IMG/VR virus record: IMGVR_UViG_3300038393_000804
Span: 83,598 to 147,597 of that record
Strand: one strand, 5' to 3'
Length of the DNA stretch: 64,000 bases
From: a virus
Lineage: Duplodnaviria; Heunggongvirae; Uroviricota; Caudoviricetes
The translations under genes were made by a program, and so were the position numbers. This document shows positions 1-53,836 of the stretch, piece after piece. The stretch's first letter is position 1, and every line of letters starts with the position of its first letter. Under the pieces are notes generated by a model. The model had not been told where the DNA came from. It saw only the letters and a list, made by a program, of their open reading frames with translations, and made no database searches.

Positions 1-159
1 AGCCTCCTGCTCCACTTCCAGACCCCTTGATTGCTTGACCTACTTTCTTAATGGCCGTTTTCTTGGGGTCACGAGCGGCAGCTTCTTCTACCTGCATCTT
101 TTTCTTAAGCCCGATGGCTTCTTTAAACGAATCCCACATACCCAAGTGGAGCCACCTCC

Positions 160-1032
160 TTATACTGTTACTCTAATATCTTTATAGTCTGGACGTAGTT
201 CAACGCGAACCAATCCAGTAGCGCTTGGCGCTAAACCTTTCATCTCTGGATAAGCATCCCAATATTCTACAAATGAACCACCGACTACATAAGTACGTTT
301 ATGCGGTACAAGCTCCCCTGATTCATTGTCGAACATAAATACAACATCATGATGAGATTGCTTTCCATGTGTGTGACCGCTAAAGTAAAGGTCAGCATTT
401 GGTACAACTTTATTAATCTTCTCTGCTGTATTTGCCTTAGAGCCAGTTGTAGCTCCGCCGCCAGCACCGTGGAAGAATGCACAGTTGTAATTGATATGGT
501 TTACCTGAATACGGAAGTATCCTTGATAACCAAAGTAAGGAACACCCAGTTTCTCTGCTAAAATTTCCATTGGGTTTAAGCCAATCATATTGGCAATACG
601 TTCTTCGTGGTTTCCTGGGCCGACACCAAGAATCTTCCCTGCCTTAGCAAGAGGCAATAGGATTTCGTGCAATGCTTTTAATTGCTCTGGGAAGTTCATG
701 TTTTCCTCGAACATGGCCTTTCCTACAGACACTTTCGTTGCCGTTTCTGCAAGGTCGCCGTTTAGCACTGTTACTGCATTTGGTACTTTCAAGATATAGT
801 CAACGAATGCTTTGAAGTAAGGAATGTTGGCTTGCTTATTCCCTAAATGAACATCCGTAATCGGCACCATAATAAGGCCATTTTGTACATAAATATCCTC
901 ATTGAAAGCATATTGGTGAATCTCCTTCCCCTTTTTAGGAGCTGAATCCCGAACCTTGTAAAAGTATTCTAATGAATCCCAGTTCTCTTCCTTTGCTGGT
1001 ACAGAATCAAAAGCTGATTTAACTTTCTTCAT
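160..1032 (-). CDS. calcineurin-like metallophosphoesterase (ORF-track start 1047; the second ATG at 1032 has better SD spacing)
   Basis: Motifs in order: DVHLG (DxH), NGDL (GDxx), GNHE, GHTHG. GAGGAGAGA RBS before MKKVK. Confidence 0.7.
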   Translation of the reverse strand: MKKVKSAFDSVPAKEENWDSLEYFYKVRDSAPKKGKEIHQYAFNEDIYVQNGLIMVPITDVHLGNKQANIPYFKAFVDYILKVPNAVTVLNGDLAETATKVSVGKAMFEENMNFPEQLKALHEILLPLAKAGKILGVGPGNHEERIANMIGLNPMEILAEKLGVPYFGYQGYFRIQVNHINYNCAFFHGAGGGATTGSKANTAEKINKVVPNADLYFSGHTHGKQSHHDVVFMFDNESGELVPHKRTYVVGGSFVEYWDAYPEMKGLAPSATGLVRVELRPDYKDIRVTV

Positions 1033-1064
1033 TCTCTCCTCTAGCATTCTCCTAATCTCTCCCT

Positions 1065-2519: not shown

Positions 2520-2685
2520 CCTCTTTTTCTATTAATTTAAAAAGGACAACCAGCAGGGCAAGGGGAGGGGGAACCCCACTGGTTGCCATCAAAAAGGGAG
2601 AGGGAGGGAAAATGACTTGCAAAGCAAGCCTAGGGATTATGTGAAAGGGAGGAGGGGGACCTCCCGTGTCACCAAAGTTGGTTGG

Positions 2686-5670: not shown

Positions 5671-6134
5671 TAAGTACGAGTCCAGTTTTGGTTCAGGATT
5701 TGAGCCTCTCCACCTAGAGCGCTCCGTGCGTTTAACTTACTTCCTTGAATGGCTTGTACAGCAGCCTGACGCATTGTTAAGGCTTTCTGTGTATCGTGGT
5801 AATTGCCTCCAACTTGACCATTCAAGTGCATATTGTTGAACCATTGTTTTTGTTGATTGTACCATGTATAAGCAGCTTGGCCTGCCGCTGGAAGACCAGT
5901 AGCTAATTGATAGCCCATCATAGCTGGCATGTAGTTTGTCCATAGAACAGAGTCTACTACACCTTTCATAGCAGCTGTTCCGAAGTCATCTCCACCAGCC
6001 ATATTACTAGCTGTTTCAAAGACTGACCATCCCACCATACCTTTAGTTAATAGGCCTGGGCCTTTACCAGCCGCAGCGCCTGCTGCATTTCCGCCTCTGT
6101 TTAAAAACTTCAGCGCATTCATTGGATTAGGCAT
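5670..6134 (-). CDS. Gly/Ala-rich hypothetical protein, 154 aa; possible virion internal or ejection protein
   Basis: ORF in a tight array upstream of TerL with low-complexity G/A composition. The start overlaps the upstream stop. Confidence 0.5.
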   Translation of the reverse strand: MPNPMNALKFLNRGGNAAGAAAGKGPGLLTKGMVGWSVFETASNMAGGDDFGTAAMKGVVDSVLWTNYMPAMMGYQLATGLPAAGQAAYTWYNQQKQWFNNMHLNGQVGGNYHDTQKALTMRQAAVQAIQGSKLNARSALGGEAQILNQNWTRT

Positions 6135-6139
6135 CTATA

Positions 6140-6607
6140 TTACCCCTTTCTTGCATTGTGTAGTCCGAATACCATATTACCTGTTGCATTCAGCGTAGGT
6201 GCATTTGTTGTGTTGCTTACACCATCAGCAGCGAATACTGGAGCCTCACTGCCATAGCTGACTGTACCAGGTTTAGGCGCGAACGCTGTATTCTTTACAA
6301 ACATCCCATATCCAACAGCAGCTCCAGCTACAGGCATCGCAACTTTACTAAATGCACTAAGGTCACGCCCTGTATAGAAGTTCATTAGACTTGGGTCTGT
6401 TTTCTTTGTTAATAGTTTACCAGTAAGCTTGGCACCCTTAACAGTACCATCAGCAGCTTTATCAGCTATATAATCAAGAGGCTTCTGAACAGTGTGCAAA
6501 GCATCAACAGCTTCTTTACCTGTAGCCTTCGTCGTGTCAGCTACAAACTTTGCACTCTTCTTACCAAACTTCAAAGCGCTTTTCAGTATTCTATCTTCAA
6601 GTCCCAC
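6140..6607 (-). CDS. Gly/Ala-rich hypothetical protein, 155 aa
   Basis: Co-oriented tight array, 5-nt gap to next gene. Confidence 0.5.
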   Translation of the reverse strand: MGLEDRILKSALKFGKKSAKFVADTTKATGKEAVDALHTVQKPLDYIADKAADGTVKGAKLTGKLLTKKTDPSLMNFYTGRDLSAFSKVAMPVAGAAVGYGMFVKNTAFAPKPGTVSYGSEAPVFAADGVSNTTNAPTLNATGNMVFGLHNARKG

Positions 6608-6616
6608 TCATATCAC

Positions 6617-7165
6617 CTACTTACTGTATAGATTGTTAACACCACGAACAAGACCATCGCCTTGGCGCTGAGCAAGAATCTTGGCAGCCTGCTTACTTAC
6701 CTTTACATTCTTACCGCCTGTTAAAGAATGAATGTTTAATGCACTAGATAGTGCTCCCTTACCTTTACCAGCAAACGGGTTAAGGCTTGTAGCGCCTGTT
6801 GCAGCTTGACCCATTCTTAGTCCACCATAGATAGTAGCACCTTTGAATGCTCCAGCCTTTGCTCCATCCCAGAAGCTTCCGCCGTTTAATGCAGAAGTTG
6901 TACCACCGATAGCACCACCGACTACTGCACCACGAACAGCATGATGCCCAGCCATTGTCCATGCACTAGAGAATCCGCCTTTTTCAACAGCTTCTTCCAT
7001 ATAGCCAGACATAATATGCCCAGTTTCTTTCCAGCGGTCCATACCTTTTTTGTCCTTAAATGCACCACTAGCAGCATCTCTAAGGTAGCGGTTCTTTGCT
7101 GCTGTATGTGCTCCTCCTTCAAAGACTCTTTCAGCGCCTTTTACTGTTGATTCTAATATAGTCAC
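6617..7165 (-). CDS. Gly-rich hypothetical protein, 182 aa
   Basis: Co-oriented array; GGAIGGTTSALNGG low-complexity tract. Confidence 0.5.
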   Translation of the reverse strand: MTILESTVKGAERVFEGGAHTAAKNRYLRDAASGAFKDKKGMDRWKETGHIMSGYMEEAVEKGGFSSAWTMAGHHAVRGAVVGGAIGGTTSALNGGSFWDGAKAGAFKGATIYGGLRMGQAATGATSLNPFAGKGKGALSSALNIHSLTGGKNVKVSKQAAKILAQRQGDGLVRGVNNLYSK

Positions 7166-7178
7166 TTAAATCACTCCT

Positions 7179-8990
7179 CTAAAATGTGTATGTTTGTCCT
7201 TGAATCATCATCTGATTACTTCCAAACTTGGCATTACCCATTTTGTGATGACCAATGCGGTCTTGGAACATTTGAGTAACCATATCACCCATATTAATAG
7301 CTCCATAGGCTTGTTGATGGTACTTTCGTTCCATGTCGCGCTGTTTCTTGTCCTTCATCTGCTTTTCAGCATTCACCATTTTAGATGTCTCTGTTTGATG
7401 GTCTAATCTATCAGATGCATCCATGACAGTAGCAACAGCAAACGCTCCGATTCCGATAGCGCCCAGCATCTTGCCTTTTTCAAACCAGTTGGTGATTTTC
7501 TTCTGGCTGGCAATATTCTTCATACTGGTAATGTGCTTCTCTTTTGCAAGCTGTTCTTCAACCTTGCTTACGGTAACCTGCTCATGAGCTGGCTCATTGT
7601 GAGCGAATTCCTCAGAGACCTCTTTTGCCTTGGTCTTCCTCTGGTCAACAATTGTATCTTCGCCCGTGTCTAAGCCCTTTGGTCCGTGAGTAGGGCCGCC
7701 CATGTCACCATCTAAGACTCCTTGAGAGACAATGTCGTCAAGCCCTTTCGCTATCTTGGATAAGCCGCCCGTCATGAAGTTATGTATATCCTGCATTTCA
7801 TGTGGCTTGAAGAAATGACTTAAACCTTTCTGAATCATTTCATGGTTATCCTCATAGAACTTATTGGCACCGCCGACTCCATTACGGAGCTTACTCATGT
7901 GACTCTTGAAGAAATCCAAGAAGTCTTCCCTTGATGCTCTCACAAGGTCTTTCTTGTTAATGTCAAATTCAACATTTGCTTCCTTATATAAGCTGTTAAG
8001 AGCACCCTTACCTTCTGGACTATCCATGTAGGCACGAACATAATCCCGTGTCTTATTTACATTCTCCATAAAGGCATCAGGATTCTGAGCTATCTTGGTA
8101 ATGCCTTCCCAGTCAGAGTTCATGATGCTTTCAAAAGCACCTTTTACTGCCTGACCATGTTCAGTCTTGAGGATATTGTCCATTGCATCCTTCACATGCT
8201 TAGCGGCAGAAGAATCCATCACTTCTCCGTACATCTCTTTCCAGAGAGCACCTGTTTTCGTGTCCGTAAACTTGTTAAGGCTCTTTTCAGCAATGTCCTT
8301 AACGGTCTTTGTGCCTTTCGCCGCTTTCTCCGCTTCCTTAATGGATTTATTTTGGAAGTGACCATAGAGTTCATGGCCCATCATCGCAAGACCAGCACCA
8401 CCAAGAAGGTTGAAGGCTGTACTTCCAGCGCCATCCTTCTCACCATTCATCATAGTATAGAGAAGACCAGCCGCCATACCAGCACCACCAAAGGCTAAAC
8501 GACCCATATTAACAGGCTTCACGAACTTCCTCATGCTATTGCCGACAAGCTTACCGACAGTGAGTTTCTCTTCTCCCATGACAAAGTTTGGATTAGACTG
8601 ATGAGGAACGATACCGCCAGCTCCTGCTTTAGGTGCCTTCATCTTATTAATGGTCTTATCTATCGCGTTGCCAACAAGATTAGAGCCATACTCTGTTCGG
8701 GCTAGACCTTGAAGAGCCATCTTCGTTAGAGCACCACCAGCGTAAGCCATTCCAGCCATGCCTACAGCGTCTCCAGCAAGTTCCCCTACTGTTTCATGCT
8801 TGTCATTAATCATGTCCAGTGCAACCGCGTGTGTGGCTGCTGTAGCGGCCTCTATGCCTAGCGCAAAGACAGGGTCAGTGGCATATTTGTAGAGACCTTT
8901 ACCAGCTTTCACACCAAGGTTTACAGCTGTCTCATGTTGGCTGAGCTTTGCTGCTTGCTCAATGATGGAATCCATATTGAATGACGGCAT
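7179..8990 (-). CDS. hypothetical protein, 603 aa, Gly/Ala/Met-rich; possible virion protein
   Basis: Long ORF whose stop/start overlaps the upstream gene at 8990. Confidence 0.55.
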   Translation of the reverse strand: MPSFNMDSIIEQAAKLSQHETAVNLGVKAGKGLYKYATDPVFALGIEAATAATHAVALDMINDKHETVGELAGDAVGMAGMAYAGGALTKMALQGLARTEYGSNLVGNAIDKTINKMKAPKAGAGGIVPHQSNPNFVMGEEKLTVGKLVGNSMRKFVKPVNMGRLAFGGAGMAAGLLYTMMNGEKDGAGSTAFNLLGGAGLAMMGHELYGHFQNKSIKEAEKAAKGTKTVKDIAEKSLNKFTDTKTGALWKEMYGEVMDSSAAKHVKDAMDNILKTEHGQAVKGAFESIMNSDWEGITKIAQNPDAFMENVNKTRDYVRAYMDSPEGKGALNSLYKEANVEFDINKKDLVRASREDFLDFFKSHMSKLRNGVGGANKFYEDNHEMIQKGLSHFFKPHEMQDIHNFMTGGLSKIAKGLDDIVSQGVLDGDMGGPTHGPKGLDTGEDTIVDQRKTKAKEVSEEFAHNEPAHEQVTVSKVEEQLAKEKHITSMKNIASQKKITNWFEKGKMLGAIGIGAFAVATVMDASDRLDHQTETSKMVNAEKQMKDKKQRDMERKYHQQAYGAINMGDMVTQMFQDRIGHHKMGNAKFGSNQMMIQGQTYTF

Positions 8991-9682
8991 TATTCCTCAC
9001 CGTCTTCAAGCTCATCATAATCAACATCAATGATTTGACCAGGTTTCATTCCACCTGCAATCTGAGACATCAATTGTGAAGCGTAAGAAGATGGGTCAAG
9101 CGAGATAGTCATCTTATCTCCTGCTTTATCCTTACGAGTAGAGTTCATCAACTCAAGGACTTTAAAGCGCTTCGTCATAATCTTGTCTTTGTATTCAGTA
9201 GCCTTAGAAAGCTGTGGAGCAGTGATAGCCTCGCCGCCTTCAGTTACCGTTACAACGACATCTTCAACGAAGTCACCTTGAACAGCTATCTTATTCTCTG
9301 CACGGAATAACTGAACGTCATAGTCAATTAAGTCTTTTACTAAGCTCATATCAACAACATTGGATTCATCAATACCAAACTCACGACTATACTCTTCGTA
9401 TTTTCTTAGTATCATGGCAATCTCCAATGGACATCTCTCAGCCTTCGGTGCTTTACCCATTTCAACAAGCGGACATACTGCCGCATATGGGCACTCCTCT
9501 GCCTTACATAGCATTGGAATAGATGCGTACAAACCATGTTTCGTATGGGACATTCCCACCGCTAGTTGGATTGCTTCACGTCCTTTATCGGATAACTTCC
9601 ATGACGCGGGCATTTCCACCTCAGTAAGGGATTGTACTTGCTGCATCTTCATTAGTTCTGCTTTACGATTATTGGCAGACAT
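8990..9682 (-). CDS. hypothetical protein, 230 aa, with a Cys cluster (C-x4-C-x..-C) and acidic C-terminus; possibly a DNA-binding or packaging accessory protein
   Basis: ORF at the head of the leftward operon. The MLCKAEECPYAAVCPL...C motif and DYDELEDGEE tail are visible. Confidence 0.5.
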   Translation of the reverse strand: MSANNRKAELMKMQQVQSLTEVEMPASWKLSDKGREAIQLAVGMSHTKHGLYASIPMLCKAEECPYAAVCPLVEMGKAPKAERCPLEIAMILRKYEEYSREFGIDESNVVDMSLVKDLIDYDVQLFRAENKIAVQGDFVEDVVVTVTEGGEAITAPQLSKATEYKDKIMTKRFKVLELMNSTRKDKAGDKMTISLDPSSYASQLMSQIAGGMKPGQIIDVDYDELEDGEE

Positions 9683-9839
9683 AATTTCACTTCCTTTCAG
9701 GCATAATAAAACCAGGACACCTGAACCTACGTCTGAAGCACCCTGGAATGGTATGGTAGGTCAGGTATCGCCTTATGGACACCGTAACCACTTAGTATCA
9801 AGTTTGTAAATAGGTTTGATAAAGAATGGAGATGATATT

Positions 9840-10094
9840 ATGGACATAAGAGGGACTGTGGCATCGTGGCATATTGTCAGTACGATTATAGCCGCCACCA
9901 TCTCTGCTGCCCAAACAGCAAGGATAAGGAAATCTATAAGAGAGCACAATAGGACTTCTGTTAGCGTTATGATTGTTGGAGGTATTATTGCTCTCTTTGG
10001 TACTATTACCATTATGATTAGGGCAAAGAAAAGCGCCCATTTCATAGAGGAGAACAACAAAATGCTAAAGGGAATAAAAAGATGGGGAATTTGA
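9840..10094 (+). CDS. small membrane protein with two predicted TM helices
   Basis: GGAG RBS 8 nt upstream of the ATG at 9840. The hydrophobic segments are read from the sequence; it is followed by the terminator at 10334. An overlapping minus-strand ORF (9773-10183) is the alternative. Confidence 0.35.
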   Translation: MDIRGTVASWHIVSTIIAATISAAQTARIRKSIREHNRTSVSVMIVGGIIALFGTITIMIRAKKSAHFIEENNKMLKGIKRWGI

Positions 10095-10333
10095 AAAAGA
10101 AGCCGTTCCTTGTTGCACCCCCATGGATGATATTTTTCTTCTTTATATCTCATACCGCAATGTGGTTTGTTTCTTTTGGTCAAACGATTTGGATTGTTAG
10201 GGAAGTAAGAAAAGAAATTCGCGTTTTATATAATAAATTAAAATAATAACAAAAAAGGTATCCTTCTCTGACGGCTCCCATTTCACTGAATGTTTAATAG
10301 CCCGTAGAAGATACCTTTTATTGCCGAAGGCTC

Positions 10334-25463: not shown

Positions 25464-25506
25464 TTAACCAAAAAACTATAACTAATAATAAGGATGGTAA
25501 TTAATC

Positions 25507-26727
25507 ATGACTAAATTTGTAAAATTCGTAGCAACTACTGAAGATGTTAAAGCTGGTGTTGATGTTCTTGTTGAAGACTTCCAAATGACTGTTAACAACT
25601 TTACTGCTGAGGGCAAGAACGGACTTGAAGAAGCTGTTGATATGTATGTGATGGAAGCTATCAACGGCGGAGAGAAGTCCATCGCTGTAGTATCTGATGA
25701 TATCAATGTTGCTAATGCAATCGCTGCTGTACTAAACCAAGCATACACTAAGGAGATGGAATTAATGAAAACTACTAAAACTGCTGAAATCACTGTATCT
25801 GTTGAATCTACACCTGAAGAAAAGAAAGCTGCTACTATCGCTAAATCATCTGCTGCACAAAAGTTCTTGGCTAAACATGCAAACAAAGTTGAAAACACTA
25901 AGGAGGAAGTTGAAATGAAACAAGAAGAAAAGAAGGTTGCTGGTCGTCGTCGTTTAAATACTGGTGCTGCTACACAAGAAGAAAAGAAAGCTGAAGTAAA
26001 AGAAACTAAAACTACAACTAATGAAAAGGTGGAAACTGAAATGAATAAACCAAACCGTAAATCTACTAGCCGTGTACTAAAGAATACTAAGCCTGCTGCT
26101 GCTGAAGGTCGTCGTCGTCTAGGTCGCTCTGAATCAATCAAGAATGAATTCAAGAAGTTTGAAGGCCCTTGGTACTTGAATGCTGAACTATACCCTGTAT
26201 TAAACCGATTAGAAGGAATCCTTGAAACATTGTCTGATGCTGAACTAGGTATTGAGCAAATCGTATTGGTTGACCCAAGTGAAGTGTCTCGTACTCGTAA
26301 CAACCCAGACATCACTGTGGTAATCCAAATCAAAGCTAATGGTAACATCTTGGAGTTCCCAATCAAGAATGCATCTGCTAACTCTAGCTCTGACCTTGCA
26401 TCTACTTCTATTGGATGGGTGGATACAAAGAACGGCCTTCGTCCTGCATTCGGTTTCTGGAGACCTAATGAAATCAATGTGAAAGCTACTTGTACTTGCG
26501 GTAAAGAATTCAAAGGCAACACTGGTAACCTATACTGCACAAGCTGCAAGAAGAAACATGCTGACGCTGAAGTATCTGTATCACACGCTTTGGATATGGA
26601 GTTTGATGGCAACTGGGTATTCCAAACTGTTCCTAACTTGGTTGTACCTCGTGAAACTCTTGCATTAATCATGGCTATTGCTCAGTATGATGCTGGTCTT
26701 GACATGTGGGGAGTTGTAGCAGAGTAA
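25507..26727 (+). CDS. hypothetical protein, 406 aa, with a Lys/Glu-rich basic middle segment (repeated GRRRL)
   Basis: AAGGATGGTAAT RBS; terminator downstream. Confidence 0.65.
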   Translation: MTKFVKFVATTEDVKAGVDVLVEDFQMTVNNFTAEGKNGLEEAVDMYVMEAINGGEKSIAVVSDDINVANAIAAVLNQAYTKEMELMKTTKTAEITVSVESTPEEKKAATIAKSSAAQKFLAKHANKVENTKEEVEMKQEEKKVAGRRRLNTGAATQEEKKAEVKETKTTTNEKVETEMNKPNRKSTSRVLKNTKPAAAEGRRRLGRSESIKNEFKKFEGPWYLNAELYPVLNRLEGILETLSDAELGIEQIVLVDPSEVSRTRNNPDITVVIQIKANGNILEFPIKNASANSSSDLASTSIGWVDTKNGLRPAFGFWRPNEINVKATCTCGKEFKGNTGNLYCTSCKKKHADAEVSVSHALDMEFDGNWVFQTVPNLVVPRETLALIMAIAQYDAGLDMWGVVAE

Positions 26728-31373: not shown

Positions 31374-31493
31374 ATGTTAATGTATTATGCGCTAGTACTT
31401 ATTACAATGATTGGCGCAGGATTTTTCTACGGCCCGATTCTAGCGAAGTGGGCTGTTAAGTTATGGCGAATCTTTTTCGGAGGTACTAAGTAA
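31374..31493 (+). CDS. small membrane peptide, 39 aa
   Basis: GAGGTGA RBS; hydrophobic. Confidence 0.3.
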   Translation: MLMYYALVLITMIGAGFFYGPILAKWAVKLWRIFFGGTK

Positions 31494-32515
31494 TGGATGA
31501 TAAGGATTTACAGCGCTTGTTAAACGAGGGCTTAAATAGAATACAACAACAAAAACAAACTAGGAGTGAAAGAAGCATGAACTTAAATATCGAAGAGAAA
31601 GAATTATACACAAAGTACAAGAAGAAAGCTGTTAAAATTGGTGGGTTTGTTGTAGCTGCTATTATTGCTGGAACGATTATTGGTCAAAGCTCTGATATTA
31701 TTCAACCTGGATACAAAGGCGTCCAGTTCAGTTTGTCTGGCGGCTTAAAGAAAGAAGTTCTTAACCAAGGGTTACGCTGGCATGCACCATGGGTAGATGT
31801 GACGCAGTACCCTGTATCAACTGAAACGGTTTATCTTACTAAGAAGGAAACAAAGAACTCTCCAGGGAATGAAGATTTCGACATCAATACTTCTGATGGT
31901 AAGTCAGTGAATGTTGACGTAGTTTATTCTTACCACATGGAAGATGATAAGCTTCCACATATCTTTACCAAGTTCCGTCGTAAAGAGGCTCCAGAAATTG
32001 AAGAGAGCTACATTAAGACCCAGATTAAAACAGTTATGCAGGAAGTTTCTACTCGTTACGGAGTGTTAGCAATGTATGCTGAACAACGTGACAAGGCTAC
32101 AAAAGAAATGGAGTCTGAACTTGCTAAGATTCTAGCGAAAGATGGCATCATGCTTGAAAGTTTCGCATTATCTGATGTTCGTCCTGATAAGACAACATTG
32201 AAATCCTTACAGCAAATTGCTGATGCACAGAACCGTAATGAGTTCTTAAAGCGTGAGCAACGCAACAAAGAGCAAGAGATGATTAACGATAAGATTGACG
32301 CCGACAACAAGGCTCAGGTTCAAGTTATTCAGGCTCAAGCTGCTGCTAAAGAAGTACAAATCAAGGCTGATGCACAAGCTAAGGCGAATGCTAAGCTGGA
32401 ACAATCATTAACTCCTGCTATCATTCAAGATAACTGGATTAAGAAATGGAATGGTTCTGTTCCTCAGGTTCAAGGTGGCAACACACCAATGATTCAATTA
32501 CCAGCATCTAAATAA
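31493..32515 (+). CDS. SPFH/band-7 (prohibitin/HflK-like) membrane protein, 340 aa
   Basis: N-terminal TM helix followed by an SPFH-like core (TSDGKSVNVDVVYSYHMEDD, coiled-coil QAQAAAKEVQIKADAQAKA, IQDNWIKKWNG). Confidence 0.65.
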   Translation: MDDKDLQRLLNEGLNRIQQQKQTRSERSMNLNIEEKELYTKYKKKAVKIGGFVVAAIIAGTIIGQSSDIIQPGYKGVQFSLSGGLKKEVLNQGLRWHAPWVDVTQYPVSTETVYLTKKETKNSPGNEDFDINTSDGKSVNVDVVYSYHMEDDKLPHIFTKFRRKEAPEIEESYIKTQIKTVMQEVSTRYGVLAMYAEQRDKATKEMESELAKILAKDGIMLESFALSDVRPDKTTLKSLQQIADAQNRNEFLKREQRNKEQEMINDKIDADNKAQVQVIQAQAAAKEVQIKADAQAKANAKLEQSLTPAIIQDNWIKKWNGSVPQVQGGNTPMIQLPASK

Positions 32516-33943: not shown

Positions 33944-35197
33944 ATGAACGAAATGGAATTTGCTAATGCAGTGCATGAAGCTGGGGGTATTGCTTACCGT
34001 GTGGGTGGCAGCATCCGTAATAAAATCTTGGGCATTCCCGTTCATGATAATGATTATTGTGTTACTGGTTTAACAGGAGAACAATTTGAAAGATTATTTC
34101 CTCGTGCTTATTCTGTTGGGCTTAGCTTTCATGTATATCTTCTAGAAATCGGAGAAGAAATATGTGAGGTAGCTTTTGCTAGGAGAGAAAAGAAAGTGGG
34201 CGAAGGACACAGAGGATTTGAAATAGATTCTAGTCCCGACATTACGATTGAAGAAGACTTATCTCGTCGTGATTTTACAATGAATGCGATTGCTTATAAC
34301 ATTCTTCGAGATGAGCTTTATGACCCATTTAGCGGTCAGAGAGACATTAAGAATAAAATAATCAATGCAACAACAGAAGCGTTTAAAGAAGACCCATTAA
34401 GGGTTTATCGGGCCGCACGATTTGCTGCTCAATTAGGATTTGATGTACATCCGAATACATTAGAAATGATGAAGGATGAAACTCTACAAGAGGAGATGAA
34501 GTCATTATCGGTTGAACGTGTTTATCTTGAACTAGAAAAAGCTTTAGAGTCTGACCACCCAGAAAAGTTTTTTGAAGTACTGAAAAATGGGCAGTGCCTA
34601 CAGGTTCACTTCAAAGAAGTTTATGACTTAATTGGTGTGGAGCAACATCCTGAACATCATCCAGAGGGTGATGCGTATAATCATACGATGCAGGTTTTGT
34701 CTGAGATGTGCAAGCTAACAGACCAAGTTGAAAGGAGATTTACTGCTCTTTGTCATGACTTTGGTAAGGCTCGTACTCCTAAAGAGTTGTGGCCTAAGCA
34801 TCATGGTCATGAAGAAGCTGGTGTAGCACCGCTAGAAGAAATATGTATTCGTTTGAAGCTTCCGAAAAAATGGTTTAATGCCGCTCATTTTGGCGTTCTT
34901 AATCATATGAGATTTCATCGTGTTCATGAAATGAGGGACGTGAAGAAAGTCGATATGATTGAAGGAGCTAGAAAAAGTGCATTGGGTGTTGAAGGTCTTG
35001 CTCAATTAGGATTAGCAGATGCTCGTGGTCGGAATGGATTACATGAAGGACATTCTAATTACGGGCCATTTCTATTCTGGGCTAATGAGATTTCTAAAGT
35101 TAAAGGTAATAAGGAACTTGAAGGCATGAAAGCGTGGGATGACAAAAGAAAGAGACAGGCTGCTCTTATAAAACAAATCAAAGGAGAGAGCAAATGA
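33944..35197 (+). CDS. cca: CCA-adding tRNA nucleotidyltransferase / poly(A) polymerase family enzyme with a C-terminal HD domain
   Basis: Head domain GGSIRN...HDNDY (GGxxR[DN]...DxD), RRDFTMNAIAY, and an HD domain (HDFGK, HGHEEAG). Confidence 0.8.
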   Translation: MNEMEFANAVHEAGGIAYRVGGSIRNKILGIPVHDNDYCVTGLTGEQFERLFPRAYSVGLSFHVYLLEIGEEICEVAFARREKKVGEGHRGFEIDSSPDITIEEDLSRRDFTMNAIAYNILRDELYDPFSGQRDIKNKIINATTEAFKEDPLRVYRAARFAAQLGFDVHPNTLEMMKDETLQEEMKSLSVERVYLELEKALESDHPEKFFEVLKNGQCLQVHFKEVYDLIGVEQHPEHHPEGDAYNHTMQVLSEMCKLTDQVERRFTALCHDFGKARTPKELWPKHHGHEEAGVAPLEEICIRLKLPKKWFNAAHFGVLNHMRFHRVHEMRDVKKVDMIEGARKSALGVEGLAQLGLADARGRNGLHEGHSNYGPFLFWANEISKVKGNKELEGMKAWDDKRKRQAALIKQIKGESK

Positions 35198-44143: not shown

Positions 44144-45574
44144 ATGTCGATGATGGATTTGCCACCACCGCTAAAACCTACAGAAACATTAGAGCTGCTT
44201 AGAGCATACAAGGCGGGGGATGAGGAAGCTAAAGAGAAAGTAATTGAAGGTAATCTCAGGTTGGTAGTGCATATTGCAAAAAAGTATGACAACACAGGAC
44301 TAGACATAGAGGATTTGTTTAGTATTGGATTAATCGGTATGATTAAAGCTGTTCATACTTTTAACACAGAGAAGGAAGTCAAGTTTGCTACATACGCTTC
44401 ACGATGCATCGACAACGAAATCTTGATGTTCCTTCGGAAAGGTAAGAAAATCAAAGCTGAAACGTCCATTGACAGCCCGATAACGACGGATATAGATGGA
44501 CATGAATTAACTTTGATGGATGTCACGCCTGATAAGAACATCCAACATTTCTCAGAAGTGTTTGAATGGAACGATACCATGGCTGAAGTACGAGCTGCAT
44601 TGGAAGGCTTGTCGCCACGGGATAAAGATATTATTCTTATGCGTTACTTTCAAAATCAAACACAACGGGAAGTGTCGGCGGCACTCGATATCTCTCAGTC
44701 CTACATATCAAGGATAGAGAAAAAGATATTGAAGAAAATAAAAAAGACCATTGAGTCTAATCAAGCTAAGGCAGAAAGGAATGAAGAGAAAATGGCTAGA
44801 GGAATTGCACCAGCCAATAAGAAAGAAGTTATTCACTTGTTAAAGACAACGACGATGTCTTACAAAGAAATCAATGAAAAGACAGGCGTACCTTACAGCA
44901 CTATTGCAACGTATGCTCAGAAGCACCGTCCAAAAGAAGTGCGGAAGGAAAAGATGACTAATCATCCAGGCATGGTTCGTGAACATAGCGGGGACACCGA
45001 TAAAGCGGTCCAGTTGTTGGCAGAAGGTAAATATACCTATGCAGAGATATCAAAACAAACAGGTGTCCCAACAGGTAGTCTAACCAGATTACGTCGTTTA
45101 TATGAGAAAGGCGATTACAAATGGGTCAATGAACCTAAGAAACGGGTGGAGATTGAAGTACCAGTTGAAACGCCAGTGATTAATCATCCAGCTTTCATGG
45201 GTGAAAAAGACAAGGAAAGGTTGGTAGAACAAGTGCCTGTTGTAAAACATGAAGTTGAGCAAGTGGAAATCAAGAAGCCTGAACAGCCTGTTGTGAATAT
45301 GGCAGAAGCAATCGAAGAGTTCAAGGCTGAAATCAAAGCCGAGCTTCGTGCAGAAGTTGAAGCAGAGGTTCGCAAGGAGATGGCTGCTGAAAGCGTTGCT
45401 ACAGAGACATCACCAATGGGTAAGATTCAAAAGCTTCTAACATTTAAGTATCATGCTTCGGGCGGGAACGTTCCAACTGAAGATTTCGTAGCTGAAATGA
45501 AAGAGCTGATTAGCATGCTTGAAGAAAGCAATAACGGTTCTATCACATTCACATTAAATGTAGAAGCTGAGTAG
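44144..45574 (+). CDS. sigma-70 family sigma factor resembling sporulation SigF/SigG (regions 2-4), fused to a roughly 270-aa C-terminal extension carrying two extra HTH-like repeats
   Basis: Region 2 IEGNLRLVVHIAKKYDNTGLDIEDLFSIGLIGMIKAVHTFN...KFATYASRCIDNEILMFLRK. Region 4 LSPRDKDIILMRYFQNQTQREVSAALDISQSYISRIEKKILKKIKK. Confidence 0.8.
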   Translation: MSMMDLPPPLKPTETLELLRAYKAGDEEAKEKVIEGNLRLVVHIAKKYDNTGLDIEDLFSIGLIGMIKAVHTFNTEKEVKFATYASRCIDNEILMFLRKGKKIKAETSIDSPITTDIDGHELTLMDVTPDKNIQHFSEVFEWNDTMAEVRAALEGLSPRDKDIILMRYFQNQTQREVSAALDISQSYISRIEKKILKKIKKTIESNQAKAERNEEKMARGIAPANKKEVIHLLKTTTMSYKEINEKTGVPYSTIATYAQKHRPKEVRKEKMTNHPGMVREHSGDTDKAVQLLAEGKYTYAEISKQTGVPTGSLTRLRRLYEKGDYKWVNEPKKRVEIEVPVETPVINHPAFMGEKDKERLVEQVPVVKHEVEQVEIKKPEQPVVNMAEAIEEFKAEIKAELRAEVEAEVRKEMAAESVATETSPMGKIQKLLTFKYHASGGNVPTEDFVAEMKELISMLEESNNGSITFTLNVEAE

Positions 45575-47191: not shown

Positions 47192-47488
47192 ATGCTAGAA
47201 AAAATTAAGCAAATCAAAGATGCACTACCATTGCAATTTAAAGATACACCGCACTTCGCTCATCATGTTATTACAAAGATTGATGAATTTGAAGAGCAGG
47301 AGCGCAGGCTATCGGCATCCAATGCATTAGCTGGCATCAAACAAAACCCTGTTGAAGAATCAGTAAGAAGGGAAACACTAAGAGTTGTGAGAGCTATCAT
47401 CATGAAGGAACTTGCGGACACTGTCGAAGATATGCTTCATTTAGGTGATAAGTATCATGAGGTCAAACATAAGGATGGGATTCGATGA
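47192..47488 (+). CDS. hypothetical protein, 98 aa
   Basis: TTAGGAGGATGATTGG RBS. Confidence 0.5.
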   Translation: MLEKIKQIKDALPLQFKDTPHFAHHVITKIDEFEEQERRLSASNALAGIKQNPVEESVRRETLRVVRAIIMKELADTVEDMLHLGDKYHEVKHKDGIR

Positions 47489-48225
47489 AGAAGCATGACA
47501 GACATGTTGTTGCTATGATAAATGGCGGCAGTCATATGCGTAATTTAAATGATGAACAATCAGATGTGGATTTGAAATACTTTGTTCTTCCAACCTTTGA
47601 TGATTTATATGAAGGCAAGAAGCATGCAAAGCAAACAACTTCGGATGAAGTGGATGAAGATGTTCAGGATGTAAGACGGCTTGAGACTTTATTGTTCAAA
47701 GCGAATCCTGCTTATCTTGATTTATTATTTAGCCCAGGCATTGAAACATTCGGATGCCAGAAGATGGATGAAATCATTGCGATGAGAGATGACATAGCCA
47801 ATATGAATCTCTCCAATCTTTACAGTGCTACGATGGGTACGGTTCAGCGGAACATCAATGACCTTCAGAATCCAACTTCGGAGAAGACACGGGCACTGAT
47901 TGAACGACATGCTTACAATCCAAAGAAAGCAATGTTGGCTGTTCATCTTTGCAAAGTACTGGTTAAGTTTCATGCAAATGGCTTTACGGACTACAAGAAA
48001 GCTATCTGGTATGAAGGTGAAGAACGCCAGTTCATGATAGATATCAAACGTGGTAAGTTTACATTTGATGAAATCAGAATGCTGATTAAGGATTGGGAAA
48101 CAGCAGCACAAGAATTAAAAGATGTTTACAAATCAAAAGAAATTCGTGTCGAAGTAAACAATCAGCTTCAGGAGAAGCTAAGAGATTTAATCTTTGATGC
48201 GACTTTAGATGGGTGGATAATATGA
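47485..48225 (+). CDS. Pol-beta-superfamily nucleotidyltransferase-like protein, 246 aa
   Basis: GGSHMRNLNDEQSDVDL fits GS-x9-11-DxD. Confidence 0.5.
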   Translation: MKKHDRHVVAMINGGSHMRNLNDEQSDVDLKYFVLPTFDDLYEGKKHAKQTTSDEVDEDVQDVRRLETLLFKANPAYLDLLFSPGIETFGCQKMDEIIAMRDDIANMNLSNLYSATMGTVQRNINDLQNPTSEKTRALIERHAYNPKKAMLAVHLCKVLVKFHANGFTDYKKAIWYEGEERQFMIDIKRGKFTFDEIRMLIKDWETAAQELKDVYKSKEIRVEVNNQLQEKLRDLIFDATLDGWII

Positions 48226-48452
48226 TATTTTACAATGATACAAACAAGGAGTATGTGATTCATCCAGCAACAGCGATTCATGGGATTGAATGCGATATGA
48301 GTCCCATCCCGCCACGCACAACACGTAAGTTTAAGGCTCCAAAAGGCATTGACCCATTCGTGAAAGTTTGGGAGTACGACAACAGCAATACGATTCTTGT
48401 ATCGGCAGCATTCGGTGAACCATTAGAAGAAGAAGTGGAGGAGTCAAAATGA
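48222..48452 (+). CDS. hypothetical small protein, 76 aa
   Basis: GGGTGG RBS before the ATG at 48222. Confidence 0.45.
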   Translation: MIFYNDTNKEYVIHPATAIHGIECDMSPIPPRTTRKFKAPKGIDPFVKVWEYDNSNTILVSAAFGEPLEEEVEESK

Positions 48453-49327
48453 TTTTATTAAATGGCAAAGAAGTTCCGTTCGGTAGATTTCCTAATGGCG
48501 AAACACATGTGATTACAACAATTGAAGCAACGGAGGAGCATCCAGCGCTCAATTTCTTCAAACAAAATATGGAGCAGGTAAATATCCTATCATTTAAGTA
48601 CGAAGATGATGCGGATTTAATCAAGCTGATGTTTGTTAAGAATCACATGGACTTGATTGCAACAGTTCCTTGTTATCTGCTTGTTTATTACATGCCTTAT
48701 TCACGCATGGACAGAAGCGAAGGCGGCAGCGTATTTACTTTAAAATATGTTTCTGCTTTTATTAACAGCCTTTATTTCGATAAAGTGTTTGTGATTGAAC
48801 CACATTCAGATGTAACATGTGCATTGCTTGACCGTTCAAAACCATTAATGGTAAATCAATTCTTAGTGAACTATGTTATGAATGAAATTGATTTTGATTT
48901 CGACAATGATTTCCTTGTTTATCCTGATGCTGGTGCGGAGAAACGTTACGAGAAAATGTTTGACCTTCAAGCAATCGTTGGTTTGAAACATCGTGATTTC
49001 CAAACAGGTTACATAACGAAACTTGATTTGGTTACACCAGGCATTGGTAAGAAAGCGATTATCGTTGATGACTTATCCAGTAAGGGTGGTACGTTTATCA
49101 TGGCTGCTGATGAGTTGAAGAAGCGTGGCTTTGAAGAAATCTATCTTTGTGTGGCTCACGCAGAAGACACTATCTTCAAGGGTAAAATATTTACGGAAAG
49201 TCCAATCAACAAAGTGTTTACAACCAACTCTATCTTATCTGACCAAGCTCAACATGATTGGGCAAATCAGCTATATAAAGATAAGATTGATGTGACGGAT
49301 GTCGAGGAGCTGATTGTTCTTGACTGA
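48449..49327 (+). CDS. ribose-phosphate pyrophosphokinase (PRPP synthetase, Prs) homolog; a candidate ADPR-PP synthetase (Adps) of a NARP1-type pathway
   Basis: Prs signatures RFPNGE, MPYSRMDR, IEPHSD and the PRPP-binding loop IIVDDLSSKGGT. Confidence 0.75.
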   Translation: MILLNGKEVPFGRFPNGETHVITTIEATEEHPALNFFKQNMEQVNILSFKYEDDADLIKLMFVKNHMDLIATVPCYLLVYYMPYSRMDRSEGGSVFTLKYVSAFINSLYFDKVFVIEPHSDVTCALLDRSKPLMVNQFLVNYVMNEIDFDFDNDFLVYPDAGAEKRYEKMFDLQAIVGLKHRDFQTGYITKLDLVTPGIGKKAIIVDDLSSKGGTFIMAADELKKRGFEEIYLCVAHAEDTIFKGKIFTESPINKVFTTNSILSDQAQHDWANQLYKDKIDVTDVEELIVLD

Positions 49328-49742
49328 CCCGTACCTATTGCCAGGTGCTGCAACCCTTCGTTTAATTAAGGAGTGGGAGCAGCACGGGAAGTTAATCGTT
49401 GCTTATGACTTTGATGGAACGGTTCATGACTACCACAAGGAAGGCAACAAGTACGACCAAGTCATTGAACTTCTTCGGGAGTGCAAGAAGCTTGGCTGTT
49501 ACTTGATTGTCTTTAGTACAAGTGAACCAGAACGACATGATTTCATTAAGAATTATCTTGATAGATGGGATATTCCTTATGACGCAGTCAATGAAAACAT
49601 GCCAGGTCTTCCGTTTAAAGGCGGCAAGATTTATTACAACATCCTGCTGGACGACAGAGCAGGATTAGAGTCAGCTTATTATTCATTAAAGCAAGCTAGC
49701 AGTTATATTAAATTGAAACGGGAGGAAACAAATAATGACTAA
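49314..49742 (+). CDS. HAD-superfamily phosphatase-like protein
   Basis: DxDGT motif (YDFDGTV) near the N-terminus; TTG start with GAGGAG. Confidence 0.55.
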   Translation: MFLTDPYLLPGAATLRLIKEWEQHGKLIVAYDFDGTVHDYHKEGNKYDQVIELLRECKKLGCYLIVFSTSEPERHDFIKNYLDRWDIPYDAVNENMPGLPFKGGKIYYNILLDDRAGLESAYYSLKQASSYIKLKREETNND

Positions 49743-51264
49743 AACTATTTTTCCAGCTACATTGTTGTGTGATTTTTACAAGGTGTCTCACCGTGAGCAG
49801 TATCCAAAGAAAACAAATAAGGTTTTCAGCACATGGATTGCACGAGGCAACAAGTACTTCCCGAAAGCAAAGAAAGTTGTAGCGTTTAACTTCCAAGGAT
49901 TAACCAAGAAATACTTTGTTGATTACTTCAATGAGCATTTCTTTAGCCGTCCAAAGGATGAAGTGGTATTTGAATACCAACGTGTTATCTACTTTACATT
50001 AATCAATCCTGGCAATGTTCAGGGTGTTGCAGACCCATTAATGGAAGCATCAAAGGTCGATGCGGAGCACATTGCAGCTCTTCATGATTTAGGTTATCTT
50101 CCAGTTCGTGTAAGAGCTGTGAAAGAAGGTACGTTGGTTCCAATGCGTGTTCCAATGTTGGTCATCGAAAATACAGTGGATGAATTCTACTGGGTAACAA
50201 ATTATCTTGAAACCATTATGTCAGCTGAGCTTTGGCAGCCAACAACATCTGCAACGATTGCTTACACGTACCGTCAGATTCTTGATGCGTATGCGATGGA
50301 AACAACAGGTTCTACAGCAGGTGTTGAATTCCAGGGTCATGATTTCTCTATGCGCGGTATGGCTGGCAAGGATGCGGCGGCAGCAAGTGGTGCTGGTCAC
50401 TTACTAAGTTTTGTTGGTACAGATACAATCCCAGCTATCAATTATCTTGAAGCTTATTACAATGCAAACATCGAGAAAGAATTGGTGGCAACTTCAATAC
50501 CTGCGACTGAACATTCAGTGATGTGCGCATACGGTCAAACAGATGAGTATGAATTATTCAAATCACTGATGACTGAAAAGTATCCAACAGGTTTCTTCAG
50601 CGTAGTATCTGATACTTGGGACTTCTGGAAAGTGGTTGGTGAATACTTACCGAAGCTGAAAGAAGAAATCCTTGGTCGTGATGGTCGCGTGGTTATTCGT
50701 CCTGACAGTGGTGACCCAGTTAAGATTCTTTGTGGTGACCCGAATGCAGAAGAAGAATTGGTGCGTAAAGGTTTAATTGAGAGCCTCTACGACATCATTG
50801 GCGGCACAGTAAATGATTTAGGGTACAAAGTATTAGACCCTCACATCGGAGCTATCTACGGCGATTCTATTACGCTAGAGAGAGCTGATTTGATTTGTGC
50901 TTTGTTAAAAGAAAAAGGCTTTGCTTCAACAAACGTGGTATTTGGTATCGGAAGCTTTACCTATCAGTATACAACGCGTGATACATTTGCACATGCGATG
51001 AAAGCAACCTTTGCTGAAGTGGATGGAGAAGAGCGCTTCTTATTGAAAGACCCTAAGACAGATGATGGTACAAAGAAATCATTAACTGGATTAGTGGCAG
51101 TTGTAAAAGTCGGTGGTGAATTAGTAGCCACTGATAATCTGGATACGAAAACTTATGAAGCAAACTTTGCAAACATTGACCTTCTTGAAGTTATCTTTGA
51201 GAACGGTGAAATCAAACGTGAAGAAAGCTTATCTGAAATTCGTGAAAGATTGGCGGCCCAATAA
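49735..51264 (+). CDS. nadV: nicotinamide phosphoribosyltransferase (NAMPT/NadV) family enzyme; alternatively a Namat-type nicotinamide ADPR transferase
   Basis: N-terminal DFYKVSHREQYP matches the NadV D.YK.SH..QYP signature; GGGAGGAAAC RBS. Confidence 0.8.
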   Translation: MTKTIFPATLLCDFYKVSHREQYPKKTNKVFSTWIARGNKYFPKAKKVVAFNFQGLTKKYFVDYFNEHFFSRPKDEVVFEYQRVIYFTLINPGNVQGVADPLMEASKVDAEHIAALHDLGYLPVRVRAVKEGTLVPMRVPMLVIENTVDEFYWVTNYLETIMSAELWQPTTSATIAYTYRQILDAYAMETTGSTAGVEFQGHDFSMRGMAGKDAAAASGAGHLLSFVGTDTIPAINYLEAYYNANIEKELVATSIPATEHSVMCAYGQTDEYELFKSLMTEKYPTGFFSVVSDTWDFWKVVGEYLPKLKEEILGRDGRVVIRPDSGDPVKILCGDPNAEEELVRKGLIESLYDIIGGTVNDLGYKVLDPHIGAIYGDSITLERADLICALLKEKGFASTNVVFGIGSFTYQYTTRDTFAHAMKATFAEVDGEERFLLKDPKTDDGTKKSLTGLVAVVKVGGELVATDNLDTKTYEANFANIDLLEVIFENGEIKREESLSEIRERLAAQ

Positions 51265-51537
51265 GATGGGTTGGTTTGATATTGAAGGCTCTGTCGGTGT
51301 CACGGTTGATGAAGAAACATTCACGAACGAATTCTTAGCATGGATGCAATCAAATGGCTGGACATTCTTAGGAGTGATTCAGCCAGCCAAACATACAAAG
51401 TAGGTGACGCTAGTGATTCGAATGAGAGAAATCGAATGTGGCAACTGCGGCTTTGATTATGATGATTGTGAAATCATTACAAACAAATGTCCAATGTGTC
51501 GTAGTGGTAAGAATCAAATTCCCAAGTAGGTGATAAA

Positions 51538-53056: not shown

Positions 53057-53836
53057 ATGATGCACCCGACTGAAGTTGAATACGAAAGACGACCTTATGA
53101 AGGTCAGATTGATGCAGGCATGAAAACATTCATGGATATAATGGATTCAGTTGCAATGGAACATGGAACACAATGGTCATTTGCAGGTGGGTTTCCTAGG
53201 GATTTATACAAGGGAAAGCACTGGAATGATTATGATGTTTGTATTCGTGATGTTCCTTATGCAAGAGACATCTTAGAAAAGACAGGAGTGTTAGCACTTG
53301 GGCAGCAGGATGGAACAGAGATTCCTCATGACATCTATTGCGACCCCTACACATTCACGAAATCAGAAATACCTGTTCATTGGATTAATGCAGATGATGA
53401 GTGGGCATTCGCTCCCGTTCGTTTTGACTTTAGTATTAATCAGATATGTTTGAAGTCAGATGGTTTTTTCTATGCTCCGAAGTATGCATGGCGTGACCTT
53501 GATAGAGGAATCATTAGAAAAACAACGGACAGGATGACAACAAACTTAGCAACACGGGCGATTCGGTTCGCTGCCAAGTATGGATTCACCATTGATACTC
53601 CATTGAATGCTGAAATAAAAGAAGCAGTTAAGGAGCCAATGGGCACAGATATTCTTCTTCGTAATTGCTTAAAGATGGTTGAAGATGAAGTTGGTGATAC
53701 ATGCTTTAAGATAATGAAGAACCGTGGATTTCCTCACATGGAAGAATGCAAAACAATGGGTGATTATATTAGAAAGTTAAACAACATGATTGTCAGTGGG
53801 CAAGGACACCGCGAAGAAAGTCCAGGCGGATATTAA
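53057..53836 (+). CDS. minimal nucleotidyltransferase resembling the head domain of CCA-adding/polyA-polymerase enzymes, 259 aa
   Basis: GGFPRDLYKGKHWNDYDVCIRD fits GGxxRD...DxD; AAAGGAGGTAA RBS. Confidence 0.55.
   Translation: MMHPTEVEYERRPYEGQIDAGMKTFMDIMDSVAMEHGTQWSFAGGFPRDLYKGKHWNDYDVCIRDVPYARDILEKTGVLALGQQDGTEIPHDIYCDPYTFTKSEIPVHWINADDEWAFAPVRFDFSINQICLKSDGFFYAPKYAWRDLDRGIIRKTTDRMTTNLATRAIRFAAKYGFTIDTPLNAEIKEAVKEPMGTDILLRNCLKMVEDEVGDTCFKIMKNRGFPHMEECKTMGDYIRKLNNMIVSGQGHREESPGGY

Follow-up and report, generated by a model that had tools for sequence, protein, structure and literature searches.

A 64,000-nucleotide stretch of phage DNA (IMG/VR record IMGVR_UViG_3300038393_000804, positions 83,598 to 147,597; referred to below as the window) was analysed around three consecutive genes at 48449-51264, which encode a PRPS-like, a HAD-superfamily and a NAMPT-like protein. 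The genes form a tight, translationally coupled operon. Its two outer genes, adps and namat, are very probably the core of the NAD+ reconstitution pathway NARP1, and thus new members of a known system. Within the searchable literature, which included the NARP1, structural, aRES, RyDEP and NARP3 reports (subscription journals lay mostly outside this scope), no text was found that describes a NARP1 operon with a HAD-family gene, and the Adps-HAD-Namat layout is therefore an apparently undescribed third-gene arrangement of known NARP1. Our full reading, to which a probability of about 0.6 is given, is a three-gene NARP1 operon of a large phage, in which the HAD protein would feed ADP-ribose (ADPR) from phosphorylated ADPR into the pathway, with ADPR-1''-phosphate as the prime candidate substrate.

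In the proposed mechanism, a host defence NADase would cleave NAD+ and release ADPR. Adps is predicted to pyrophosphorylate ADPR with ATP to ADPR-pyrophosphate (ADPR-PP), and Namat is predicted to join ADPR-PP and nicotinamide directly to NAD+. An NMNAT would not be needed, because the product of Namat is NAD+ itself. Phosphorylated ADPR, which Adps could not use, would be stripped of its phosphate by the HAD phosphatase, and the ADPR released would then enter NARP1. ADPR-1''-phosphate, if it is the substrate, would stem from RES-type NAD+ phosphorylases such as aRES.

The genes of the operon and the open reading frame (ORF) ahead of it are as follows.

48213-48452, plus strand: upstream ORF of 79 aa, possible operon member; its stop overlaps the adps start (ATGA)
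48449-49327, plus strand: adps, 292 aa; PRPS-like, ADPR-pyrophosphate synthetase by similarity
49314-49742, plus strand: HAD phosphatase gene, 142 aa, TTG start; small, capless HAD-superfamily protein
49735-51264, plus strand: namat, 509 aa; NAMPT-like, nicotinamide ADPR-transferase by similarity

An earlier note on this DNA had placed a trio of Prs-like, HAD and NAMPT-like genes at 48449-51264, where three plus-strand ORFs were indeed found. The peptide motifs it cited were recovered from the translations (GRFPNGE, MPYSRMDR and IIVDDLSSKGGT in protein 1, the adps product; DFYKVSHREQYP in protein 3, the namat product). The overlaps amount to 14 nt between adps and the HAD gene and 8 nt between the HAD gene and namat, and a GGAG-type ribosome-binding site lies ahead of every start in the operon. 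Immediately 5' of the TTG start of the HAD gene at 49314 is a GAGGAG site. The JGI gene call (P0001), 100% identical to the HAD protein, puts this start 8 codons downstream; residues 3-8 are conserved among homologues. The genes were assigned to one operon because they overlap, and not on the basis of promoter or terminator scans. Scanning for sigma-70 promoters gave fewer promoter-like sites than were present in shuffled sequences and was uninformative on transcription units, and the terminator scan returned a weak hairpin only (51254-51273). For the 79-aa upstream ORF, no Pfam or PHROG match was obtained.

Adps and Namat

Protein 3 matched PF04095 (E 3.4e-35) and PF18127 in Pfam and scored 539 bits against NF006629 (cut-off 405). 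Against solved structures, it reached 715 bits with SPbetaL1 Namat (PDB 9w5x/9w5w) and 498 bits with 9ke8, compared with approximately 200 bits for Xanthomonas and human/mammalian NAMPT structures. Identity to SPbetaL1 and FADO Namat was 65-66%. Namat enzymes possess a specific helix motif (SCH; GS-X-phi-X-phi-X-phi-TRD), the aromatic X residues of which stack on the adenine of ADPR-PP or NAD+, and a variable loop (SCL) that adds another stacking residue, with either Arg in the third position or a stacking residue preceded by Lys/Tyr (PMC12774641). The SCH motif reads GSFTYQYTTRD in the window protein, GSFTYQYNTRD in SPbetaL1 Namat and GMGGALLQKVDRD in Xcc Nampt. The SCL loop of the window protein, ARGNKYFPKA with K40-Y41, is a near-match to PRSNKYFPKA of FADO Namat, which belongs to a system verified in vivo.

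At 22 aligned positions (the NAD+-contact residues and two neighbours), 20 residues were identical to SPbetaL1 Namat. These include the complete Nampt-like catalytic core (D13, Y15, F189, R192, D215, R306 and D308, SPbetaL1 numbering) as well as F392, Y396, R399 and D400. The two differences, R40K and A362S, are both also present in FADO and ICP1 Namat. By these comparisons the NAMPT-like protein is assigned to Namat and not to true NAMPT. Adps and Namat match separate halves of phrog_12872, a profile of 547 positions, which points to fused Adps-Namat proteins in some phages and hence to a Rosetta-stone link between both enzymes.

Protein 1 matched PF14572 (E 2.6e-8) and PF00156 in Pfam, and phrog_619 with E 1.6e-68. 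Its match to TIGR01251 had an E-value of 6.6e-24, but the score of 84 bits was below the Prs cut-off of 113. Identity was 49.8% to FADO Adps (254 bits), 48.1% to SPbetaL1 Adps (235 bits), 33.6% to the structurally characterised ICP1 Adps (95 bits) and 22.6% to E. coli Prs (58 bits). The top score against solved canonical PRPS structures was 42 bits. Residues were compared using Adps criteria from PMC13586617 and bioRxiv 10.1101/2024.02.11.579819. F18, R87, H121, D161, K185, D212 and D213 of ICP1 Adps correspond to F14, R86, H119, D160, K180, D207 and D208 of the window protein, most of which are also found in PRPS; K180 is the counterpart of Lys185, which is essential in ICP1 Adps. F92 and D216 of ICP1 Adps are unmatched in the window protein, and equally so in verified SPbetaL1 and FADO Adps. 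The PP-loop DDLSSKGGTF is similar to the SPbetaL1 and FADO loops.

Because the catalytic residues are mostly common to PRPS, the Prs-like protein was identified as Adps by its overall similarity and by the Namat gene next to it. The namat start is located 408 nt past the adps stop in the same operon, and Namat has been reported adjacent to 97% of Adps-clade genes (bioRxiv 10.1101/2024.02.11.579819). As judged by pairwise scores and identities, the Prs-like protein groups with experimentally verified Adps and not with canonical PRPS. With NARP1 of SPbetaL1, FADO, Bas63 (E. coli phage) and ICP1 (Vibrio phage), the window operon shares orthologous enzymes, the order adps before namat and the phage setting (bioRxiv 10.1101/2024.02.11.579819; PMC12774641; PMC13586617). 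It differs in that verified NARP1 systems consist of two adjacent genes, whereas in the window the HAD gene is situated in between and overlaps both.

Under classical salvage, the same genes would be read differently: the Prs-like enzyme would make phosphoribosyl pyrophosphate (PRPP), the NadV-like enzyme would make nicotinamide mononucleotide (NMN), and an NMNAT of the host or from a distant part of the phage genome would complete NAD+ in a NARP2-like manner. Pfam, NCBIfam and PHROG names fit this account ('ribose-phosphate pyrophosphokinase', 'nicotinamide/nicotinate phosphoribosyltransferase'), but such names proved wrong for verified homologues. Synthesis of NMN from PRPP is partly kept by Namat enzymes as a side activity (PMC12774641). 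The adenine clamp found here, however, is absent from true NAMPTs, and the Prs-like protein remained under the Prs family cut-off, with a bit score 2-4x nearer to verified Adps. NARP2 (NadV/Nampt and NMNAT, Vibrio phage KVP40) and NadV salvage do resemble the window in their NAMPT-fold enzyme using nicotinamide, yet NARP2 has an NMNAT partner, and the window has instead a Prs-like partner and the clamp that Nampt lacks. With only 64 kb of the genome visible, an NMNAT elsewhere is conceivable. Within these 64 kb, Pfam scans of ORFs of at least 110 aa detected no NMNAT (CTP_transf_like), Macro, Nudix, nicotinamidase or NAD synthase, so that the earlier note's remark that no NMNAT is nearby holds across the window. 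Lack of an NMNAT in the window is expected under NARP1, because NARP1 forms NAD+ directly. Classical salvage is regarded as extremely improbable. The preference of the earlier note for NARP1 is supported by the Namat-type scores and adenine clamp and by the Adps-type similarity of the Prs-like protein.

The HAD-family gene and its linkage to NARP1

The HAD protein had no Pfam family match and weak NCBIfam matches only. It scored 22.1 bits (E 1.5e-4) against NF046079, the BT0820-type HAD family (curated cut-off 165), and matched phrog_1238 with E 9e-28. It is therefore placed, by profile matches, as a distant BT0820 relative only, in what appears to be its own subfamily, phrog_1238. In an alignment of 59 sequences, the four HAD motifs (D32-x-D34-x-T36, Ser/Thr near position 66, K105 and D113-D114) were invariant or at least 90% conserved. 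Conservation specific to the subfamily was found for an invariant R16 and a near-invariant E20 in an extra N-terminal helix, for D39-x-H41 in the loop after motif I, and for N93. The D+2 aspartate, D34, marks the protein as a phosphatase.

An AlphaFold model (pLDDT 94.5, pTM 0.88) displayed a Rossmann-like HAD core. Nearest solved folds were BT_0820 (PDB 2obb), class C acid phosphatase, Pnkp1 and the T4 Pnkp phosphatase; structure searches revealed no characterised close relative. BT_0820 and the T4 Pnkp/Pnkp1 domains share with the HAD protein the minimal capless Rossmann core and the DxDxT, K and DD motifs, but identity to them is merely 21-25%, and the extra N-terminal helix and the D39-x-H41 loop distinguish the window protein. 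The model is consistent with a minimal, capless HAD phosphomonoesterase akin to enzymes acting on nucleotide ribose phosphates. The label 'phosphoheptose isomerase', as given by RefSeq and PHROG, was rejected on the HAD motifs and fold, SIS-type isomerases being low-probability matches only. Candidate domain fusions of HAD relatives were also discarded: in one long ORF (locus L030) the frame reads on into an HNH homing endonuclease, and the remaining extensions are without a recognisable domain.

For linkage analysis, an alignment-based scan of IMG/VR yielded 323 HAD relatives, the best 80 of which were analysed along with earlier loci; searching IMG/VR for the HAD gene with a pattern taken from one protein gave no match. 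Phage HAD proteins were clustered at 70% identity into 45 clusters, and linkage was scored where Adps and/or Namat lay on the same strand at a distance of at most 8 kb. Distant HAD matches (approximately 30% identity) in Klebsiella Ackermannviridae and phage Eowyn, which do not adjoin NARP1 genes, were excluded from the family. Adps and/or Namat accompanied the HAD gene in 31 of the 45 clusters. The commonest order was Adps-HAD-Namat, as in the window (18 clusters), followed by Adps-Namat-HAD (4), HAD-Adps-Namat (3), Namat-HAD-Adps (3) and HAD with Adps alone (3). Junctions between the HAD gene, adps and namat were mainly overlaps or gaps of at most 20 nt. The published frequency of NARP1 is 4.3% of phage genomes; against this base rate, the binomial probability of 31/45 is approximately 4e-32, with clusters that share ancestry and are not fully independent. 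Representative phage loci are listed below.

Bacillus Bastille-like phages such as BPS13: Adps-Namat-HAD
Code-15 gut phage Phass-1: Adps-Namat-HAD
crAss-like phages cr126_1 and DAC15: Namat-HAD-Adps
Lak megaphages: HAD adjoining an Adps-like gene
T5-like Vibrio phage VPT02: Adps-HAD-Namat
Several long metagenomic phage contigs: Adps-HAD-Namat

In bacteria (one genome per species), Adps and/or Namat were present at 61 of the 80 best HAD loci. HAD-Adps-Namat was found in about a dozen Paenibacillus/Cohnella species and Adps-HAD-Namat in many Bacteroidota. Chromosomal NARP1 of Paenibacillaceae (loci L111-L130) has the HAD gene first, e.g. at 2090-5000 of locus L116 from Paenibacillus pini; the study validating bacterial NARP1 of Paenibacillus foliorum names no third gene. 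Wherever the alignment reached it, the Namat clamp motif was carried by the Namat-like genes of HAD loci. NAD synthase, nicotinamidase and a PnuC-type transporter were over-represented even at loci without a visible Adps or Namat. Taken together, the linkage is strong, and the HAD subfamily is likely to be functionally tied to NARP1 or NAD metabolism.

Candidate substrates of the HAD protein

Accessory enzymes of NARP1 have been described in two other forms. In NARP1-AP of Vibrio phage Gary, the Macro-domain enzyme Adpp is encoded between Adps and Namat and converts ADPR-1''-phosphate, the product of aRES, to ADPR, by which aRES is countered (bioRxiv 10.64898/2026.01.28.702374). RyDEP, a RyR-domain glycosidase, opens cyclic ADPR signals to ADPR (bioRxiv 10.64898/2026.05.28.727677). 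Both share one logic, in that an ADPR derivative unusable by Adps is turned into ADPR. Like NARP1-AP, the window operon has three genes in the order Adps-phosphatase-Namat with a small middle enzyme. The middle protein of NARP1-AP, however, is Macro/Poa1p-like (PF14519/PF01661/PF20016), and that of the window has a HAD fold without sequence or fold kinship to it. By analogy the window operon may work like NARP1-AP; lacking a Macro domain, it is not a member. RyDEP-NARP1 of mycobacteriophage DyoEdafos likewise has an accessory gene in the NARP1 locus for conversion of an ADPR derivative to ADPR, as proposed here, but its product is a glycosidase on cyclic ADPR signals and that of the window is a phosphomonoesterase-type HAD protein. 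On our reading, the HAD protein would do the job of the unrelated Adpp. That it is a phosphatase converting phospho-ADPR to ADPR is given a little less than an even chance; that ADPR-1''-phosphate specifically is the substrate is more doubtful.

For detection of Adpp, a hidden Markov model was built from 10 published sequences; left-out Adpp sequences were recovered at E 1e-28 to 1e-40. With this model, neither the window (no match at E<=1) nor any of 105 related phage loci and 80 bacterial loci yielded a Macro gene. At the published rate of 15% Adpp in NARP1 phages, the probability of finding it in 0 of 31 clusters is approximately 0.006. Phages of Bacillus, Bacteroides, Staphylococcus and Listeria are all missing from the published Adpp table, which comprises mainly Pseudomonas and Vibrio phages. 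The published aRES table includes two hosts of HAD-carrying NARP1 phages, Bacillus cereus and Bacteroides thetaiotaomicron. The absence of Macro and the host pattern fit a non-homologous replacement of Adpp by HAD.

Several points weigh against this reading. The absence of Macro is confounded by host taxon, Macro-Adpp being so far confined to phages of Proteobacteria; the HAD arrangement extends to phages of this phylum in at least one case, Vibrio phage VPT02. In FADO, SPbetaL1 and vB_BcoS-136, which have the closest Adps and Namat relatives, the two genes are adjacent with nothing between them. The HAD protein is not required for core NARP1 activity, because these systems work without a HAD gene. 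Neither Adps nor Namat was seen in the visible flank of the HAD gene in approximately 30% of phage clusters and 24% of bacterial loci, and one lone HAD gene was located in an ordinary-looking region of a Firmicute chromosome. Gene linkage cannot identify the phosphoester that is hydrolysed. Enzymology was not found for this HAD subfamily, and for BT_0820 no paper was found and no substrate is assigned.

The linkage evidence would fit equally well if the HAD protein served NARP1 through another phosphoester, namely 2'-phospho-ADPR (from NADases acting on NADP+), NADP(H), or ADPR monophosphates arising from decay of ADPR-PP through ADPR-cyclic-phosphate, in which case lost intermediate would be returned to the ADPR pool. 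Spontaneous decay of ADPR-PP to ADPR-cyclic-phosphate has been reported in vivo and in vitro, and among characterised folds, nucleotide 2'/3'/5'-phosphatases (T4 Pnkp, Pnkp1 and class C acid phosphatase) come nearest. Operons that handle the pyridine half otherwise, by nicotinamidase and NAD synthase, have retained the HAD gene as well, which suggests action on the ADPR half. HAD phosphatases, however, cleave monoesters, and a cyclic phosphate would need a phosphodiesterase first, none of which is consistently linked. The NADP pool is considered too small to merit salvage, which speaks against 2'-phospho-ADPR and NADP. Direct evidence was found for none of these substrates, and we regard this account as unlikely.

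Two further accounts take the HAD protein away from ADPR supply. As a pyridine-nucleotide 5'-nucleotidase (NMN or nicotinate mononucleotide to the riboside) or as a safety valve for PRPP or ADPR-PP, it would tune the pathway. The NMN-forming side activity of Namat, a PnuC-type transporter near one HAD locus and weak HAD matches that include the distant EcbF-BcbF capsule-phosphatase family agree with such a role. Enzymes of the EcbF-BcbF family take off the 5-phosphate following PRPP-dependent ribosyl transfer. Destruction of NMN or ADPR-PP would, however, oppose restoration of NAD+ in infection, and the chance of this role is rated as small. An unrelated phosphatase of nucleic-acid repair or of the nucleotide pool (PNKP-like 3'-phosphatase), carried as a passenger in an anti-defence or nucleotide-metabolism island, appears slightly less probable still. 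Its fold would resemble the T4 Pnkp and Pnkp1 phosphatase domains, as observed, and homologues are named 'polynucleotide kinase' in some database records. RNA-repair neighbours exist as well: the window has an RlaP nucleotidyltransferase (47485-48225), and several related loci have RNA ligases, RtcB or Thg1. These neighbours are, however, not conserved among HAD loci, and direct, often overlapping contact with Adps or Namat is kept through at least five gene orders, across Bacillus, crAss-like, T5-like Vibrio and Lak phages and chromosomes of Paenibacillaceae and Bacteroidota.

Neighbouring genes and biological meaning

Five linked genes for PncA (nicotinamidase), Adps, a Namat-like protein, HAD and NadE were found in Phass-1 (L006, 821-5343), in the metagenomic phage loci L105 (5166-9177) and L042 (7983-11984), and in bacterial locus L165 (Clostridium tagluense). 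The five genes abut or overlap in Phass-1 and L105 and are permuted in L042. In the Namat-like proteins of Phass-1, L105 and L042, D215, which in Namat hydrogen-bonds the nicotinamide amide, is replaced by Ala, and A242 by Ser; the TRD end of the clamp is kept. The aromatic clamp is fully kept only in Phass-1, with L105 and L042 retaining F392 but having Met and Cys at the Y394/Y396 positions. The gene set and these substitutions suggest a 'deamido-NARP1' route, in which nicotinate and ADPR-PP would give nicotinate adenine dinucleotide (NaAD), to be converted to NAD+ by NadE. No description of such a route was found in the searchable literature.

Nucleoside 2-deoxyribosyltransferase-like ORFs (PF15891) lie between HAD/Adps and Namat in L023 (6696-7175) and L103 (8694-9188), and probably also in L077 (8413-8832) and L073 (8366-8791); this gene may be a further recurrent NARP1 accessory. 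Directly upstream of Adps-HAD-Namat on a 178-kb metagenomic phage contig is a gene with a NADAR domain, an ADP-ribose-processing family (L019, 3379-3939). Namat genes and NARP1 operons are frequently hit by insertions, e.g. in vB_BcoS-136 (L001, 5816-6057), L017 (5420-5965), L030 (8402-8954) and several IMG/VR loci. The Namat of vB_BcoS-136 has an extra internal segment of approximately 80 aa, and in some loci HNH/NUMOD4 homing-endonuclease genes are found between HAD and Namat or fused after them.

A terminase gene, a sigma-factor gene, the one-strand layout of most long ORFs and their scarcity of Pfam matches mark the window as phage DNA. Megablast of 47400-51500 against 50,697 phage records gave no match; the phage itself is new, and relatives are comparable at the protein level only. 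The large terminase subunit gene of the window (2686-5670, minus strand) is split by an intein with a LAGLIDADG homing endonuclease. Strand and GC skew switch near 10 kb: positions ~1-10200 hold minus-strand genes, including the terminase, with negative skew and a GC content of 0.41-0.46, and positions 12000-64000 hold plus-strand genes with positive skew and lower GC than the first 10 kb. From ~12 kb onward nearly all long ORFs are on one strand, most of them without a Pfam match. In a sigma-70-family protein of 476 aa (44144-45574, plus strand), additional helix-turn-helix repeats come after regions 2 and 4. A 247-kb contig (L016) has a similar sigma gene ahead of Adps-HAD-Namat, which suggests that the window phage and that of L016 are related jumbo phages.

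Around the operon, RNA-end-processing genes are located at 47485-48225, 33944-35197, 53057-53836 and 160-1047 (minus strand). Besides the RlaP-type nucleotidyltransferase immediately ahead of the operon, they encode a CCA-adding/poly(A) polymerase that carries an HD domain, another protein with weak similarity to tRNA nucleotidyltransferases, and a calcineurin-like phosphoesterase. At 57318-63806 (plus strand), a Prok_Ub protein (E 5.9e-30, apparently repetitive), a JAB-type peptidase (61532-62818) and a ThiF/E1-like enzyme (62889-63806) form a cluster that looks like a phage ubiquitin-like conjugation module. An SPFH/Band-7 protein is encoded at 31493-32515 (plus strand). Such a gene is also present two genes downstream of the NARP1-HAD operon in cr126_1 (L005, 5393-6184), and the related-locus survey included two such neighbours. 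Two ORFs of approximately 400 aa overlap nearly fully on opposite strands (25482-26672, minus; 25507-26727, plus). Only the plus-strand ORF was scanned, with no Pfam or PHROG match.

NAD+ depletion is among the commonest bacterial anti-phage strategies, and NARP1 is the main known phage counter to it. NARP1 fails where the defence leaves a phosphate on ADPR, for which the single published phosphatase solution is the Macro-domain enzyme. A second, unrelated phosphatase, of the HAD type, occupies the same operon position in bacterial chromosomes as well as in phages of the Bacillus, crAss-like, Lak and T5-like groups, and the arms race over phosphorylated ADPR may be broader than currently described. 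The pathway is masked in annotation by the labels 'phosphoheptose isomerase', 'ribose-phosphate pyrophosphokinase' and 'nicotinamide phosphoribosyltransferase'. The HAD enzyme is present in cultured phages, namely Bacillus phage BPS13 and relatives, Bacteroides phage DAC15 and Vibrio phage VPT02.

As a tentative generalisation, a widespread 'NARP1-HAD' pathway might exist in phages of Firmicutes, Bacteroidota and some Proteobacteria and on chromosomes of Paenibacillaceae and Bacteroidota, either as a convergent replacement of Macro or with another phosphorylated NAD+ breakdown product as substrate. If the former is true, phages with the HAD gene would resist defences based on RES-type NAD+ phosphorylases. 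The latter would point to a host defence chemistry that has not yet been described.

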